Part shown: positions 4,494 to 10,946 of the stretch, one piece after another | How the letters are laid out: every line of letters begins with the position of its first letter | Numbering within the stretch: the first letter of the stretch is position 1 | IMG/VR virus record: IMGVR_UViG_2711768042_000009 | DNA length: 23,314 bases | Strand: one strand, 5' to 3' | Source of the DNA: a virus | Taxonomy: Duplodnaviria > Heunggongvirae > Uroviricota > Caudoviricetes | Made by a program: the position numbers and the translations under genes | Notes under the pieces: generated by a model | What the model saw: the letters and a program-made list of their open reading frames with translations, nothing else | Databases searched by the model: none | What the model was told of the DNA's origin: nothing

Positions 4494-5347
4494 GCACCAT
4501 CCTGAAATGGGCGGGAAATAAAACCGCCATTATGTCCGAACTGAAAAAACACCTTCCTGCTGGCCCGCGACTGGTTGAACCTTTCGCGGGTTCCTGTGCT
4601 GTGATGATGGAGACGGATTACCCCAGCTATCTTGTTGCGGATATTAATCCTGATTTAATCAACCTCTATAAAAAGGTTGCTGCTGATTGTGAGGCGTTTA
4701 TATCTCGTGCCAGAGCTTTATTTGAGGAAGCAAACAGGGAGGTGGCTTATTACAACATAAGGCAGGAGTTTAATTACTCCACTGAAATTACTGATTTCAT
4801 GAAAGCGGTATATTTCCTGTATCTCAATCGTCACGGTTACCGTGGTTTATGTCGCTATAACAAGAGCGGGCATTTCAACATTCCCTACGGTAATTATAAA
4901 AATCCGTATTTCCCTGAAAAAGAACTTCGCACATTTGCAGAAAAAGCCCAGCGAGCAACGTTTATCTGCGCAAGCTTTGATGAAACGCTGGCGATGCTGC
5001 AGGTGGGGGATGTGGTGTATTGCGATCCGCCGTATGACGGTACGTTTTCCGGCTATCACACTGATGGTTTCACTGAAGATGACCAGTATCACCTGGCATC
5101 CGTTCTTGAACATCGGTCATCAGAAGGACATCCGGTCATTGTTTCTAACAGTGATACATCCCTGATCCGTTCGCTGTATCGCAATTTTACTCACCACTAC
5201 ATCAAGGCAAAACGCAGCATCGGTGTAGCAGCTGGTGAGAGTAAATCTGCAACAGAAATCATCGCTGTTTCCGGGCCGCGCTGCTGGGTGGGATTTGATC
5301 CTTCGCGTGGCGTGGATAGTTCTGCCGTGTACGGAGTGCGTGCATGA
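4490..5347 (+). CDS. dam: DNA adenine methyltransferase (Dam family, N6-adenine, GATC-type)
   Basis: Starts [11 protein letters not shown] (Dam N-terminal SAM-binding motif), contains the catalytic DPPY motif ([10 protein letters not shown]). ATGA overlap with upstream gene. Confidence 0.9.
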
Positions 5348-7758
5348 GCCATGCTGATATGAACAACTGCAGCGGCTTTAACGAGGTCGCCGCAGCATTC
5401 TCATGGAACAGCCCGAAAAAGGCCATTAACCCTTATCTGGACCCGGCGGAAGTTGCGCCGGTTTCTGCGCTTTCAAACCTGATCACTCTGTACGCTACCG
5501 ATAACGAGCAGGAACAACTGCGCCGCGAGGTTCTGAGTGATCAGGTATGGGAGCGTTATTTCTTTAATGAATCACGTGATCCTGTCCAGCGCGAAATGGA
5601 GCAGGATGAGCTCATTAGCCGGGCAAAGCTGGCGCATGAGCAGCAGCGTTTTAATCCGGGCATGGTCATTCTGGCGGACGTTAACGCCCAGCCTTCCCAT
5701 ATCAGCAAGCCGCTGATGCAACGTATTGAATACTTCAGCAGCCTGGGCAGGCCAAAGGCTTATTCCCGCTATTTGCGTGAGACGATTAAGCCATGTCTGG
5801 AACGACTGGAGCATGTACGCGACAGTCAGCTATCCACTTCTTTTCGCTTTATGGCAAGCCATGAAGGGCTGGACGGTCTGCTGATCCTGCCTGAAATGAG
5901 TCAGGATCAGGTGAAACGCCTGTCCACCCTGGTAGCTGCGCATATGAGCATGTGCCTTGATGCCGCTTGTGGCGATTTGTATGCCACCGATGACGTTAAG
6001 CCAGAAGAAATCCGCAAGACATGGGAAAAGGTGGCGGCGGAAACCCTGCGACTGGATGTCATACCGCCTGCGTTTGAGCAACTCCGCCGGAAAAGAAACC
6101 GCCGTAAACCCGTGCCCTATGAACTCATTCCGGGGTCGCTGGCGCGTATGCTGTGCGCCGACTGGTGGTATCGGAAATTGTGGAAGATGCGTTGCGAATG
6201 GCGGGAAGAGCAGTTGCGTGCTGTTTGCCTGGTCAGCAAAAAAGCATCTCCCTATGTCAGCTATGAAGCCGTGATGCATAAACGTGAGCAGCGCCGTAAG
6301 TCGCTGGAGTTTTTCCGTTCTCATGAACTGGTGAACGAAGACGGCGACACGCTGGACATGGAGGATGTGGTAAACGCCAGCAGCAGCAACCCTGCGCATC
6401 GCCGCAATGAGATGATGGCCTGTGTTAAAGGTCTGGAGCTTATCGCGGAAATGCGCGGTGACTGCGCCGTTTTCTACACCATCACCTGTCCGTCACGTTT
6501 CCATTCCACGCTAAATAACGGCAGGCCCAACCCGACCTGGACAAATGCGACGGTAAGACAAAGCAGTGATTATCTGGTCGGCATGTTTGCTGCATTTCGT
6601 AAGGCGATGCACAAAGCCGGGTTGCGCTGGTATGGCGTGCGGGTGGCTGAGCCGCATCATGACGGCACAGTTCACTGGCACCTGTTGTGTTTCATGCGCA
6701 AAAAAGACCGCCGCGCCATTACTGCATTGTTGCGTAAGTTTGCTATCCGTGAAGACCGCGAGGAGCTGGGTAATAACACGGGGCCACGCTTTAAGTCTGA
6801 GCTGATAAACCCGCGCAAAGGAACGCCGACTAGCTACATCGCGAAATACATCAGTAAGAACATTGACGGGCGTGGTCTGGCTGGCGAGATCAGCAAGGAA
6901 ACGGGTAAATCTCTGCGTGATAACGCTGAATACGTTAATGCCTGGGCGTCTCTGCATCGTGTTCAGCAATTCCGCTTCTTTGGCATTCCGGGACGTCAGG
7001 CTTACCGTGAACTGCGATTGCTGGCTGGTCAGGCGGCAAGGCAACAGGGTGACAAAAAAGCAGGTGCGCCGGTACTGGATAACCCGCGCCTTGATGCCAT
7101 CCTGGCTGCAGCTGATGCTGGTTGTTTTGCCACCTACATCATGAAGCAGGGCGGCGTACTGGTTCCCCGTAAATATCACCTCATCAGAACCGCTTATGAA
7201 ATCAACGAAGAGCCGACCGCCTATGGCGATCACGGCATTCGTATTTATGGCATCTGGTCACCCATTGCAGAGGGCAAAATCTGCACTCATGCCGTGAAGT
7301 GGAAAATGGTTCGTAAGGCCGTTGACGTTCAGGAGGCGGCAGCCGACCAGGGCGCTTGCGCCCCTTGGACTCGTGGCAATAACTGTCCCCTTGCTGAAAA
7401 TTTGAACCAACAAGGGAAAGATAAATCAGCTGATGGGGATACCAGGACGGGCATTACCCGCATGGATGACAAGGAGTTGCACGATTACCTGCACAGTATG
7501 AGCAAAAAAGAGCGCCGGGAACTGGCAGCAAGGTTACGCCTGGTGAAACCGAAACGGCGTAAAGACTACAAACAGCGAATTACAGACCATCAGCGACTGC
7601 AGCTCGTGTATGAGCTGAAGTCCAGAGGATTTGATGGCAGCGAGAAAGAGGTCGATTTACTCCTTCGCGGAGGCAGTATTCCGTCAGGAGCAGGCCTGCG
7701 TATCTTCTATCGGAACCAGCGTTTGCAAGAAGATGATCAGTGGCGGAACCTGTATTAA
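5344..7758 (+). CDS. A: Replication initiation protein A (P2 gpA-like rolling-circle endonuclease)
   Basis: 804 aa; contains HUH-type metal-binding motif ([10 protein letters not shown]) and catalytic tyrosine motif ([10 protein letters not shown]) characteristic of P2 A / phiX174 A superfamily; position after the early genes matches P2/186. Confidence 0.9.
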
Positions 7759-7850
7759 TTACGCGGATTAACAATTCGTGCTCTTAATAATACCAGGCAT
7801 ATCAGGCTGATGAACGTAAAAAAACGTTTTACATCAGTAAGATTATTATA

Positions 7851-7870
7851 TACTGTAAATATAAACAGTG
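7851..7870 (+). promoter_or_regulatory. LexA (SOS) box overlapping a candidate promoter: TACTGTAAATATAAACAGTG
   Basis: Perfect CTGT-N8-ACAG core (CTGT 7853-7856, ACAG 7865-7868) with AT-rich spacer. TTTACA (-35-like) at 7828-7833 and TATACT at 7849-7854 overlap it. Lies upstream of the tum-like/DinI-like ORFs, as the LexA-controlled tum promoter does in 186. Confidence 0.6.
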
Positions 7871-7911
7871 GTTATACATACAGTGTTGCGTGTGGTGTCA
7901 TAGGAGGAAAG

Positions 7912-8100
7912 ATGCAGGACTATTTTTTGGAGTCTTTGAAGCTCCAGCGCATTGATTTTTTTCTTAAGCTTGTAGCGGCTAGTGAGTGTAGTGATGAAGA
8001 GAAGGGGCTGGCTCTGCAGTGGGTTTCTGAATTGACTGATGAACTCATGGCAAAAATCAGAACCCACGAATACAACCGCTCAATGGATGTCATCAGCTGA
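7912..8100 (+). CDS. Small protein, possible N-terminal part of a Tum-like SOS antirepressor
   Basis: ATG 7912 with AGGAGG RBS; 62 aa; directly downstream of the LexA box; followed in a different frame by a DinI-like ORF. Confidence 0.5.
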   Translation: MQDYFLESLKLQRIDFFLKLVAASECSDEEKGLALQWVSELTDELMAKIRTHEYNRSMDVIS

Positions 8101-8110
8101 GGTGACTTTT

Positions 8111-8344
8111 ATGCGCATTGAAATAATGATCGATAAAGAGCAGAAGATTAGCCAGTCTACCCTGGACGCCCTTGAATCCGAGCTTTACCGCAATCTGCGC
8201 CCCCTGTATCCCAAAACGGTAATTCGCATTCGCAAAGGTAGCTCTAACGGTGTGGAACTAACCGGACTGCAACTGGACGAAGAAAGAAAACAAGTGATGA
8301 AAATTATGCAGAAGGTGTGGGAAGACGACAGCTGGCTGCATTAA
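8111..8344 (+). CDS. DinI-family protein (DinI-like / Tum C-terminal domain-like)
   Basis: ATG 8111 with RBS GAGGTGA; 77 aa MRIEIMIDK...LDALESEL...KQVMKIMQKVWEDDSWLH aligns by eye with E. coli DinI (MRIEVTIAK...IDALAGEL...ETWESADDW). Confidence 0.8.
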   Translation: MRIEIMIDKEQKISQSTLDALESELYRNLRPLYPKTVIRIRKGSSNGVELTGLQLDEERKQVMKIMQKVWEDDSWLH

Positions 8345-8479
8345 GAAACGTTGCTGGCGTCTGAACTTGCTTCTGGCGTCAGCAAGGTTGAACAACGAGC
8401 CCTTGCGAGGCGTTAGCTCTGTAGTGCATGTCTATGCCGCATGAGATCGCATGATCGTTTGAGGATCGTTTTTGCTAAG

Positions 8480-8503
8480 GCCCGCCAGAACTGGCGGGCT
8501 TTT
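8480..8503 (+). terminator. Rho-independent terminator (GCCCGCCAG-AA-CTGGCGGGC-TTTT)
   Basis: Perfect 9-bp GC-rich stem, 2-nt loop and T-run on the + strand, downstream of the DinI-like gene and upstream of the cos-like sequence. Confidence 0.5.
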
Positions 8504-8548
8504 GCGTAGATCATGCAGGTGCATGAAAACCACTACATAAAGCGAGCA

Positions 8549-8567: not shown

Positions 8568-8727
8568 CGCGCGCTCGCTAAGCTTTGTAACACATTGAGT
8601 CAAGTCACTTTTTAGACGCAAATGGCTTGCAAACTTTTTCAACATTAAGGTAATTTGTTAGATATTGATGGAAAAAATTAAGACAAGAGCGATTTTCAAT
8701 TGCTTTTGGGTTGACTAGGTGCATGTT

Positions 8728-9834
8728 ATGACAAGTGGTGTCCCAGTGGTGCTTTCTGACTTTGAGTTAAAGTCGATCTTAGCCTTAACTGAACGTTTTA
8801 CGTGGCATATCGCCAGACCAATTATTGCTTCTTTAGGGCTACCTACAGGTAGAGGGCGTGAAGCAACAAACGACAAAATACTAGAAAGCCTCATTGATTT
8901 TAAAAAGAAAGATAGGCAAAAATTTGACAAAATCATTGCAAGTGTAAATGATTTAGTCTTTGGGCAGGTTGTTTATGGTGAAAAAGCAATATTTAGTTTG
9001 TCTGTAGATAGTCAAGTAATTAAATTACTTGATGATAGATATGCTCTCCAATGGAATATGATGAAGCAACCAACATCATTAGTCGAAACGATTGTTGATG
9101 ATGTTCAATTACAGCATGCTATTAAAAATCAACTTGAGCTTGTTAATTACTCTAAGCAAAATACTCAGTCTATTTTGGTATTTTCATCTATCAGGGAGCT
9201 GGTTGTAAGAGAGAAAGTCCCTCCGTCAAAGTTAGCAGCATACAAACAGTTTGATGAAATCATTGCGAAGAGAAAAGAAAAACGTCAGTGTTTTGATGTG
9301 TGTATATTAGATTCAGCTTCAAATAAAATCCATGTATTAATTGATACTAATGGTAATGTTGTTGGTGATAATATCGTTTTTGCGAAAACGAATTTTATTC
9401 GTGAGTTATATAATTGCGCAGGTTATCAATTTAATTCATCGGAAAAGGATTTTTATCCATTAATTGAGCCAATTTTCAAGCAAAATGTAATGCCATATTC
9501 AAGTTTAAGTTATAAGGTGTTCGATTTGTCATTTTTAACTTATGAGGGAACCACTCATAAGGAAAAGAAAAATGTGGCTAAGAAAGACTTGCGTGATGAT
9601 CTGTTTAATAAAGAGGGCATTAAAGCTGTAGGTAATATTGGTTTATATCGTATTGGAATTAGAGTAGATAGGAATAATCCAAAATTGCAATTGGCGGATA
9701 GTGTAGAGCTTATCATTCCAGGAACATTACGCAGACATTTAGGTGGTAGTGGGTGCTCTCCTGTCAATTATGCTATATTAAGCAAATGTATATCCAAAGA
9801 TGATTTCGAAACCCTCACAAAGCTGATATTATAA
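8728..9834 (+). CDS. Cassette gene 1: large hypothetical protein (368 aa), no recognisable motif; candidate sensor/effector of an accessory system
   Basis: ATG 8728 (in-frame GTG at 8719) with RBS AGGTG. AT-rich: I counted 30% G+C in 9001-9060 versus 47% in a terminase sample, 12301-12360. No Walker A motif seen. Stop TAA 9832-9834 is immediately followed by the next gene's RBS. Confidence 0.8.
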   Translation: MTSGVPVVLSDFELKSILALTERFTWHIARPIIASLGLPTGRGREATNDKILESLIDFKKKDRQKFDKIIASVNDLVFGQVVYGEKAIFSLSVDSQVIKLLDDRYALQWNMMKQPTSLVETIVDDVQLQHAIKNQLELVNYSKQNTQSILVFSSIRELVVREKVPPSKLAAYKQFDEIIAKRKEKRQCFDVCILDSASNKIHVLIDTNGNVVGDNIVFAKTNFIRELYNCAGYQFNSSEKDFYPLIEPIFKQNVMPYSSLSYKVFDLSFLTYEGTTHKEKKNVAKKDLRDDLFNKEGIKAVGNIGLYRIGIRVDRNNPKLQLADSVELIIPGTLRRHLGGSGCSPVNYAILSKCISKDDFETLTKLIL

Positions 9835-9846
9835 TTGGAGTCAGCA

Positions 9847-10281
9847 ATGAAGGATGGTGATATGCCCCAGATCATCAAAGAAATATGTGCAGAGCGCCCT
9901 GATATAGGGGCGCTAGCTTGCTATTTGTATGATGAAATTGGTGTGAGAGCAAAGAAATCGCCTAATATAGCTCTGAGTTATAAAGATTTATTTAGTATCG
10001 TTAATGGTTATAAAGGATGTATACAACCTGAAGCATATGAGCAGGTTGTGTACCCAGCTATACAAATTCTTTGTAGTCCAAAGGTTGAGTTTTTAAAACT
10101 CAATTATTGGTTTATTGATGATTTTCATGATCCTATTGAGCTTGAGTTAGAAGATGTTATAGAGGCTGAAATTAATCAATCTTTAGTAAACCCATTTACA
10201 GGGGAGATTATGTATGACTATAAGTCCTTCGTCTTTCCTTTTTTTACATTAGATGAATCTAAATTAAAGGATATTGTCTGA
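9847..10281 (+). CDS. Cassette gene 2: small acidic hypothetical protein (144 aa)
   Basis: ATG 9847 preceded by GGAG at 9837-9840 (in-frame TTG at 9835); AT-rich; stop TGA overlaps the start of gene 3 (TGATG), indicating translational coupling. Confidence 0.75.
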   Translation: MKDGDMPQIIKEICAERPDIGALACYLYDEIGVRAKKSPNIALSYKDLFSIVNGYKGCIQPEAYEQVVYPAIQILCSPKVEFLKLNYWFIDDFHDPIELELEDVIEAEINQSLVNPFTGEIMYDYKSFVFPFFTLDESKLKDIV

Positions 10282-10946
10282 TGTTAAAAATGTCTGCACC
10301 AATGAGTTTAGCTGAAATTGATAATGATATTTTTCTTCAGCGTATCAATGCTTCTATTACTCGCGTTAGGTTTGCTCTCCAGTCGTATGAGAACTTCAAA
10401 CAGTTTGTAAGAATTGAGCTTGATTCTGCTGTACAGGCAATTGAGGAAAATTCAAATAAATTGAATTTTGATTTAACAGAAGATCAGCTTACTTTAATTT
10501 TACTGGCAAATATAAAAAATAAAGATATGGGAATTGAAGCATATCATGAAAATAATCAACGAGGTCATTGTGATATAACAATAAAGTTGAATAGATTTAC
10601 TTGGCATGGCGAGGCCAAAAAACACACTGGTTCATATAGTTATTTATTTAAAGGGTATGCACAACTCACTGAGCGATATAGCACTGGTACTGTAGACAGT
10701 GCAAGTGGTGGGTTAATTATATATACGCGTAATAAAAAATGTAATGAAATGATGACTAAGTGGAAGGCTCATTTAGATAAATCGGCTCCAAGAATTCATG
10801 CTTGTAAGTCTATCTCGATAACTCCTTGTAAGAGAAACCCATTGGTTTTTTACAGTCAACATACTCACACTGTTAGTCAACTTAATTATGAGGTTATACA
10901 CTACCCTGTAAACCTTTATCATGAGCCTGTAGACTCAGAGCTTTGA
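10281..10946 (+). CDS. Cassette gene 3: hypothetical protein with PD-(D/E)xK-like nuclease motif (221 aa)
   Basis: ATG 10281; contains ...GIEAYHENNQRGHCDITIKLNRFTWHGEAKKH..., which fits the E / hhD / ExK signature of restriction-endonuclease-fold nucleases (D and ExK 13 residues apart). Motif-level only. AT-rich, co-oriented with genes 1-2. Confidence 0.75.
   Translation: MLKMSAPMSLAEIDNDIFLQRINASITRVRFALQSYENFKQFVRIELDSAVQAIEENSNKLNFDLTEDQLTLILLANIKNKDMGIEAYHENNQRGHCDITIKLNRFTWHGEAKKHTGSYSYLFKGYAQLTERYSTGTVDSASGGLIIYTRNKKCNEMMTKWKAHLDKSAPRIHACKSISITPCKRNPLVFYSQHTHTVSQLNYEVIHYPVNLYHEPVDSEL

Follow-up and report, generated by a model that had tools for sequence, protein, structure and literature searches.

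A split tum locus: the LexA-box operon of a 186/Fels-2-type prophage as a two-gene module

The window analysed here, a stretch of 23,314 nucleotides recorded as IMGVR_UViG_2711768042_000009, represents by its gene content a P2-family prophage of the 186/Fels-2 type. An integrase gene occupies positions 1-1095 on the minus strand and is followed on the same strand by the gene of a 186-type CI immunity repressor (1411-1980), which matches the Pfam families Phage_CI_repr and Phage_CI_C. The CI open reading frame spans 1411-2067, and a probable GTG start at 1980, accompanied by a GGAGG at 1985-1989, would give a protein of 189 aa; the start was chosen from the sequence and from the alignment to the 189-aa CI of E. 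coli HS. Genes for CII and a Dam methylase are also carried by the window, and the portal and terminase genes lie on the minus strand from 11010. On the plus strand, the gene of a P2 gpA-type replication endonuclease (replicase) extends from 5344 to 7758 (Pfam Phage_GPA, E 9.2e-128) and fixes the position of the SOS module that is the subject of this work. The module adjoins the 3' side of gpA in a prophage with a 186-type CI, which is the setting by which a split tumA/tumB operon is recognized, and the SOS operon of phage 186 is likewise positioned after gene A. Over positions 7760-8520 the window is 100% identical to four complete E. coli genomes. No RNA family was returned by an Rfam scan of the whole window.

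All the features of the module are on the plus strand. A sequence-only reading of this DNA had proposed a LexA box over a promoter, a 62-aa open reading frame and, after an 8-nt spacer containing a ribosome-binding site, a 77-aa DinI-family open reading frame in a different frame. The two frames stand as drawn: ORF1, a tumA-like gene (named tum in E. coli HS) coding for a predicted two-helix antirepressor of 62 aa, is found at 7912-8100, and ORF2, a tumB-like gene coding for a 77-aa protein, at 8111-8344. The box, TACTGTAAATATAAACAGTG, also holds its place at 7851-7870, where LexA is predicted to bind. The spacer had to be corrected to 10 nt (8101-8110), and the ribosome-binding site of ORF2 (GAGGTGA, 8099-8105) is indeed present but overlaps the stop codon of ORF1, a TGA at 8098-8100. 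ORF1 has a site of its own, AGGAGG at 7902-7907, whose GGAGG is invariant in eight aligned phages. Two longer alternatives to these genes were rejected: a 96-aa frame from an ATG at 7810, because its start lies upstream of the SOS promoter, and a 101-aa frame from an ATG at 8039, because relatives do not keep the frame relation that it needs. Downstream of ORF2, the RNA fold of 8345-8515 (z = -3.5) contains an 11-pair hairpin ending in UUUU. This G+C-rich hairpin, at 8477-8503, probably ends tumA-tumB transcription as an intrinsic terminator and is analogous by position to t95a of phage 186; the terminator scanner missed it since its tail consists of only four T. Another hairpin, flagged by the terminator scan at 8089-8106 over the ORF1 stop and the ORF2 ribosome-binding site, was dropped as a regulatory element because its fold (z = -0.6) is no better than that of shuffled sequences.

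The product of ORF2 falls within the DinI family, as it matches Pfam PF06183 along profile positions 1-63 of 63 with an E value of 6.6e-23 and a score of 81.3 bits (cut-off 24.2 bits), and it also matches the DinI structure 1GHH of the PDB (E 2.7e-6). It is 41% identical to residues 71-145 of 186 Tum, aligns to positions 71-148 of 151 in phrog_189 and shares 78% identity with PSP3 TumB. Judged by these alignments, ORF2 corresponds to TumB and, in 186 Tum, to the C-terminal half. Its score against the NCBIfam equivalog for host DinI (NF007893) is 42.7 bits, below the 111-bit cut-off, and the protein is best classified as a phage DinI-like paralogue, not as the chromosomal DinI.

The relationship of ORF1 to Tum is more remote. 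No similarity to 186 Tum or PSP3 TumA was detected by BLASTP, and the protein remained unmatched in sequence searches of Pfam, NCBIfam, PADLOC and the PDB. When a profile built from 27 diverse relatives was compared with 186 Tum by hhalign, residues 3-45 aligned to residues 3-45 over 43 columns (94.9%, E 4.7e-8); the profile match to PSP3 TumA was weak (7%, E 0.005). In the PHROGs collection ORF1 corresponds to phrog_698 (E 3.6e-38), and the N-terminal half of 186 Tum matches both phrog_698 (5.9e-6) and phrog_1993, the family of PSP3 TumA (1.5e-23). On the evidence of these profiles, the ORF1 product is distantly homologous to the N-terminal, antirepressor half of 186 Tum, a kinship visible to profile methods only. 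The proposed Tum-related, SOS-controlled reading of the locus is supported, and the alignment of the two ORFs to 186 Tum that had been suggested as a check places them on its two halves. The AlphaFold2 model of ORF1 comprises two helices, at residues 2-22 and 28-61, with a pLDDT of 85.7. A Foldseek search with this model against viral structures gave nothing significant (best E 0.55), as expected for a two-helix hairpin. As to annotation, most phage records and the E. coli genomes of RefSeq call the product of the 62-aa gene a 'hypothetical protein', ECHS_RS04495 of E. coli HS being itself a 62-aa 'hypothetical protein'; the label 'levan regulatory domain protein', which is sometimes met, results from a wrong upstream start codon.

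Taken together, the region is very probably the intact SOS operon of a prophage of the Fels-2/DuoHS type within the P2 family, with tumA and tumB as two genes, the form usual for this operon. Host LexA would occupy the box at 7851-7870 in the lysogen, and, as the box overlaps the -10 element of a sigma-70 promoter, transcription would be blocked. Upon DNA damage, RecA would be activated, LexA would cleave itself and a short bicistronic tumA-tumB mRNA would be made, its probable end being the hairpin at 8477-8503. The 62-aa two-helix product would act as an antirepressor that binds the 186-type CI and keeps it off its operators, so that lytic growth can follow. The 77-aa DinI-like product would probably modulate the activity of the RecA filament, and with it how strong or how long the SOS signal is, rather than cause induction. 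The anatomy of the locus, its homologies, the kept two-ORF layout and the purifying selection on both ORFs are shown by the present analysis, and published work on a near-identical copy shows that induction needs the 62-aa gene and a cleavable LexA. Direct binding of LexA to the site in the window, contact of the ORF1 product with CI and the part played by the DinI-like protein are steps that we infer.

The importance of the first gene is manifested in the E. coli HS prophage DuoHS, where ECHS_RS04495 encodes a protein identical to the ORF1 product at 61 of 62 residues, with S where the window has T51. In the Phollow study, an in-frame deletion of this gene (tum) abolished the induction of DuoHS by mitomycin C (PMC12055606). 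The primers used for that deletion map exactly to positions 7892-7914 and 8098-8120 of the window, which means that only the 62-aa ORF was deleted, its ATG being fused to the TGA, and that ORF2 was left untouched. By analogy with this gene, ORF1 would be needed for SOS induction of the prophage studied here. It could be argued that the two genes are real but that ORF2 is the one driving induction, or that both products act as a complex, ORF1 being an accessory or exerting its effect through translational coupling. Such an arrangement would fit with phage 186, in which the shorter Tum products correspond to the DinI-like part and are annotated as modulating SOS induction, and with the better conservation of ORF2 across phage types, 78% identity to PSP3 against none detectable for ORF1. 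It would also fit with the overlap between the ORF1 stop and the ORF2 ribosome-binding site, owing to which the in-frame deletion in HS might lower the translation of ORF2 by coupling, a point that bears on the sufficiency of ORF1. However, the HS deletion leaves the ribosome-binding site and the start codon of ORF2 intact. Moreover, many phages carry a relative of ORF1 and a LexA box without a DinI gene: among the divergent ORF1 relatives (20-45% identity) of other P2-like phages the box is kept, and most of these loci lack any DinI gene. In PSP3, antirepressor activity was reported for the upstream gene, according to a personal communication relayed second-hand in a passage of PMC3121763, and non-polar deletion of dinI did not significantly alter the induction of the Gifsy prophages (PMC3121763). 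An ORF2-driven switch is consequently considered unlikely, and ORF1 is retained as the probable antirepressor.

The control of the operon by LexA depends on the significance of the palindrome at 7851-7870. Its core, CTGT-N8-ACAG at 7853-7868, is the sole such site in the window; taken alone, this 16-nt core is weak evidence, since 0.39 matches per window are expected by chance and 33 of 100 shuffles contain at least one. The full 20-nt site matches the LexA consensus at 17 of 20 positions, a level reached by none of the 100 shuffles. Of 80 IMG/VR loci whose ORF1 is identical, nearly all have the box 61 nt 5' of the ATG, and in the divergent relatives it lies 40-67 nt 5' of the start codon, or a one-mismatch box is found, as in the locus L097. 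LexA boxes are also present upstream in 186 and PSP3. Directly 3' of the box, a degenerate LexA-like half-site, TATACATACAGTG (7873-7885), can be read from the sequence; it is kept in Fels-2, SopEPhi and Yersinia MLG42, and it is absent from the 20-mer consensus matches at up to three mismatches, indicating that it is not a full LexA box.

As for the promoter, a putative -35 hexamer, TTTACA (7828-7833), was read by eye and is followed after 17 nt by TACTGT (7851-7856), which would serve both as the -10 hexamer and as the left arm of the box. The pair is the counterpart of 186 p95, annotated as TTCACA / TACTGT, in which TACTGT likewise combines the -10 with the left arm of the LexA box. The sequence between the hexamers differs in Fels-2, SopEPhi and Yersinia phage MLG42, while the hexamers themselves and their distance of 17 nt are kept. 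A consensus promoter scanner found no site at the SOS module, and TACTGT matches TATAAT at only 3 of 6 positions; the promoter assignment therefore rests on the analogy with 186 p95 and on conservation. The candidate hexamers of the sequence-only reading are thus backed by their conservation and by the -10 shared with p95, but not by the scanner, whereas the box over a promoter directly 5' of the first gene, as the operon model predicts, was upheld by the consensus match, the shuffles and its kept position in relatives.

A chance or vestigial palindrome, with both genes expressed independently of the SOS response, would be compatible with the frequency of the bare core and with the failure of the scanner to find a canonical promoter. 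Against it stand not only the score of the full site in comparison with the shuffles but also the distance from box to start, which is fixed across loci while the flanking spacer sequence varies. In addition, a lexA(Ind-) allele abolished the mitomycin C induction of DuoHS in E. coli HS, where the box is identical (PMC12055606), and the Fels-2 operon STM2726-2728 responded to the DNA-damaging mutagen MX, STM2727 being increased 5.5 to 14.8-fold (PMC2225428). This alternative is very unlikely, and LexA control of the tumA-tumB operon is maintained as the preferred reading.

The junction between the two genes was of special concern, given that the sequence-only reading had left open whether the locus is a two-gene variant or a frameshifted tum, and with it whether the prophage is still UV/SOS-inducible. 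ORF1 and ORF2 are in different frames, and no single continuous ORF of about 146 aa with both modules exists in the window, where the TGA at 8098-8100 and the 10-nt spacer are followed by a separate start, an ATG with its own ribosome-binding site. A stop codon separates the ORFs in all of the 85 loci carrying both. The stops are TGA, TAG or TAA and the spacers measure 9, 10, 11 or 12 nt, so that all three frame relations occur; a spacer of 9 or 12 nt puts both ORFs in one frame, and even then a stop separates them. When SopEPhi and the Yersinia phage were used for comparison, dN/dS was about 0.07 for ORF1 and about 0.06 for ORF2, values that point to purifying selection on both. When 1.84 billion representative proteins were searched exhaustively, 66 related clusters were recovered, all of them short, and none contained a fusion of ORF1 to DinI. 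Even the homologues of the 186-type N-terminal half are mostly stand-alone proteins of 63-78 aa, and only a few are fused; the fused Tum of 186 is the exception among relatives, the split form being the prevailing one. It has also been stated, in a passage of PMC3121763, that tum is split by a stop codon in Fels-2 and PSP3.

An inactivated, frameshifted single tum in a prophage that is no longer SOS-inducible could be defended on the grounds that 186 Tum is, as had been correctly noted, one protein of 146 aa whose halves (the C-terminal one DinI-like) match ORF1 and ORF2, and that the frame of ORF2 stays open as far upstream as 8039, so that one indel within 8039-8097 could in principle join the frames, but it is extremely unlikely in the face of a two-ORF layout found in every related locus examined, including those with in-frame spacers, the low dN/dS of both ORFs, their separate ribosome-binding sites, the lack of any fused member of the ORF1 family, the stand-alone 186-type homologues, and near-identical modules that are functional in E. 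coli HS and damage-induced in Fels-2. Neither intact single-ORF relatives nor relaxed selection, the marks of a frameshifted pseudogene, were observed; homologous prophages consistently show two ORFs with both products conserved, which is what had been named in advance as evidence against a frameshift. Of the two options initially raised, the two-gene variant is the one that survives: on the comparative data, the locus is a bona fide two-gene SOS module and not a frameshifted tum. The doubt about UV/SOS inducibility falls together with the frameshift, the 62-aa gene being required in E. coli HS.

The pairing of ORF1 with the CI repressor follows a pattern of its own. Among 71 loci with an identical 62-aa protein, the neighbouring CI proteins form 17 clusters by their C-terminal domain (under 80% identity) and six clusters by their N-terminal domain, and the C-terminal domains found beside an identical ORF1 are only 25-45% identical. 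The helix-turn-helix domain of CI retains many invariant positions and the C-terminal domain almost none. A simple specificity model of one antirepressor for one repressor does not predict an identical ORF1 accompanied by divergent CI proteins. Co-variation between ORF1 and CI was looked for and not found, in that ORF1 similarity does not track CI similarity in divergent loci; the idea that ORF1 divergence simply follows immunity type was dropped for this reason, and the mismatch argues against a tight one-to-one co-evolution. It is conceivable, and put forward only tentatively, that one invariant 62-aa antirepressor serves many heteroimmune CI repressors. There are hints, to be taken as a lead, that its target might be the conserved DNA-binding domain of CI, with an action across immunity types. 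If this were true, the antirepressor could cross-induce co-resident P2-like prophages of different immunity, comparable to the trans-acting crosstalk of the Gifsy prophages.

The module is widespread. The same layout is present in 1144 of 5426 complete E. coli genomes, and at least 593 loci in IMG/VR encode a relative of ORF1. Where the divergent loci reach far enough, nearly all of them have a gpA match a short way 5' of the ORF1 homologue; this match mostly ends some 150-400 nt, and up to about 1 kb, before the homologue. The same ORF pair is annotated in Fels-2 (STM2728 and STM2726.1), SopEPhi, Yersinia MLG42, Klebsiella phages, vB_EcoM-813R9 and E. coli HS. The finding matters for annotation only, in that a 62-aa gene makes a very common prophage family SOS-inducible, and it advances no open question; the prophage of the window is to be treated as DNA-damage-inducible and not as the carrier of a broken tum.

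Several known systems come close to the module of the window. In DuoHS of E. coli HS, besides the ORF1 counterpart, the DinI-like protein ECHS_RS04500 is identical to ORF2 at 77 of 77 residues; there is no difference from the window in the -35, the LexA box, the ribosome-binding sites or the ORF1/ORF2 junction, the module likewise follows gpA, and the CI is about 88% identical. DuoHS differs by a few leader substitutions, which fall between the box and the ribosome-binding site, and by its other downstream cargo genes. In Fels-2 of Salmonella Typhimurium LT2, ORF1 is 98.4% identical and ORF2 identical, and both Fels-2 and SopEPhi (orf10/orf11) show the same two ORFs with a spacing of 10-11 nt and the same LexA box as the window. 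Fels-2 resides, however, in another host genus and has other downstream genes, a 243-aa ORF being the next. A literature search on tumA/tumB gave nothing relevant, and these gene names are found in the PSP3 record, where tumA ('UV induction of prophage') and tumB reproduce the order seen in the window: LexA box, small gene, stop and 77-aa DinI-like gene. PSP3 TumA is a 60-aa protein of phrog_1993, whereas ORF1 of the window belongs to phrog_698, and the PSP3 spacer is 3 nt instead of 10.

Phage 186 offers the mechanistic precedent. Its LexA-regulated promoter p95 drives Tum, which sequesters CI (PMC7708051), and Tum has been described as binding CI and preventing its binding to the operator (Shearwin 1998, as cited in passages of PMC3121763 and PMC7708051). 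The homologues of ORF1 and ORF2 are its N- and C-terminal halves, respectively, but in 186 both modules are contained in one polypeptide of 146 aa, connected by a linker of about 25 residues without a stop, and in the window they are separate genes; in 186 a GTG start with its ribosome-binding site inside the gene also allows the DinI-like part to be translated alone. The Gifsy prophages (gfoA, gftA; PMC3121763) likewise have a LexA box and an operon that encodes a DinI homologue together with a small antirepressor, and their repressor is sequestered, not cleaved. The Gifsy operons differ in that dinI comes first, the phages are lambdoid and the repressor belongs to an unrelated family. The two-gene SOS switch of the window is therefore an already known one, described and genetically tested in near-identical prophages.

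At the level of the repressor, a hint at the target of the tumA-like predicted antirepressor gene ORF1 (7912-8100, + strand) came from the diversity of the CI immunity repressors found next to its product. An identical 62-aa antirepressor-like protein adjoins CI repressors belonging to 17 clusters of the C-terminal domain and 6 clusters of the N-terminal domain (loci L006-L085), and among these repressors it is only the helix-turn-helix domain that keeps many invariant residues. These sequence comparisons suggest that the antirepressor would target the DNA-binding domain of CI, and that P2-like prophages of different immunity may be able to cross-induce one another. The CI open reading frame of the window, on the - strand, contains no ATG, and its likely start is a GTG at 1980-1978 (- strand), with a GGAGG at 1989-1985. 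Translation from this GTG gives a CI of 189 aa (1411-1980, - strand), the length of the repressor in the near-identical prophage of E. coli HS.

Stand-alone relatives of ORF1 that lack a DinI gene (loci L086, L087 and L092-L112) conserve a glycine-rich C-terminal tail of approximately KKNPQxGGxxSGGGxLQ, and this tail is absent from the ORF1 of the window and from the remaining members, those with a DinI gene as partner. In several public records ORF1 begins at an upstream ATG at 7810, giving a 96-aa version (7810-8100, + strand) that some of them name 'levan regulatory domain protein'. This start is probably a mis-annotation, since it lies upstream of the SOS promoter. Directly 3' of the LexA box there is a degenerate LexA-like half-site, TATACATACAGTG (7873-7885, + strand), which is kept in Fels-2, SopEPhi and Yersinia phage MLG42. 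It may represent a second, weak point of contact for LexA, or simply a portion of the mRNA leader.

At the other end of the module, a strong hairpin, roughly 43 nt long (8347-8389, + strand), occupies the 3' untranslated region directly past the stop codon of the DinI-family gene ORF2, upstream of the terminator hairpin. The RNA fold of the region that includes it (8345-8515) has a z of -3.5, and a search of Rfam returned no family match for the hairpin. By eye, the same region is partially alike to the PSP3 sequence at the equivalent place.

Further downstream, three low-GC ORFs of 371, 148 and 221 aa run in the same direction (8719-10946, + strand), with a GC content of 0.30-0.37 versus about 0.52 in the flanks. 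None of them has a match in Pfam, NCBIfam or PADLOC, and their sole family matches are PHROGs 12777, 11490 and 9664, all of them function-unknown families. The 371-aa protein has a relative in one phage record only, that of Klebsiella phage KP12 (58% identity). These ORFs, candidates for uncharacterised defence cargo, lie within the hotspot between the replicase gene gpA and gpQ, which in P2-like phages is a site of anti-phage systems (PMC9122126).
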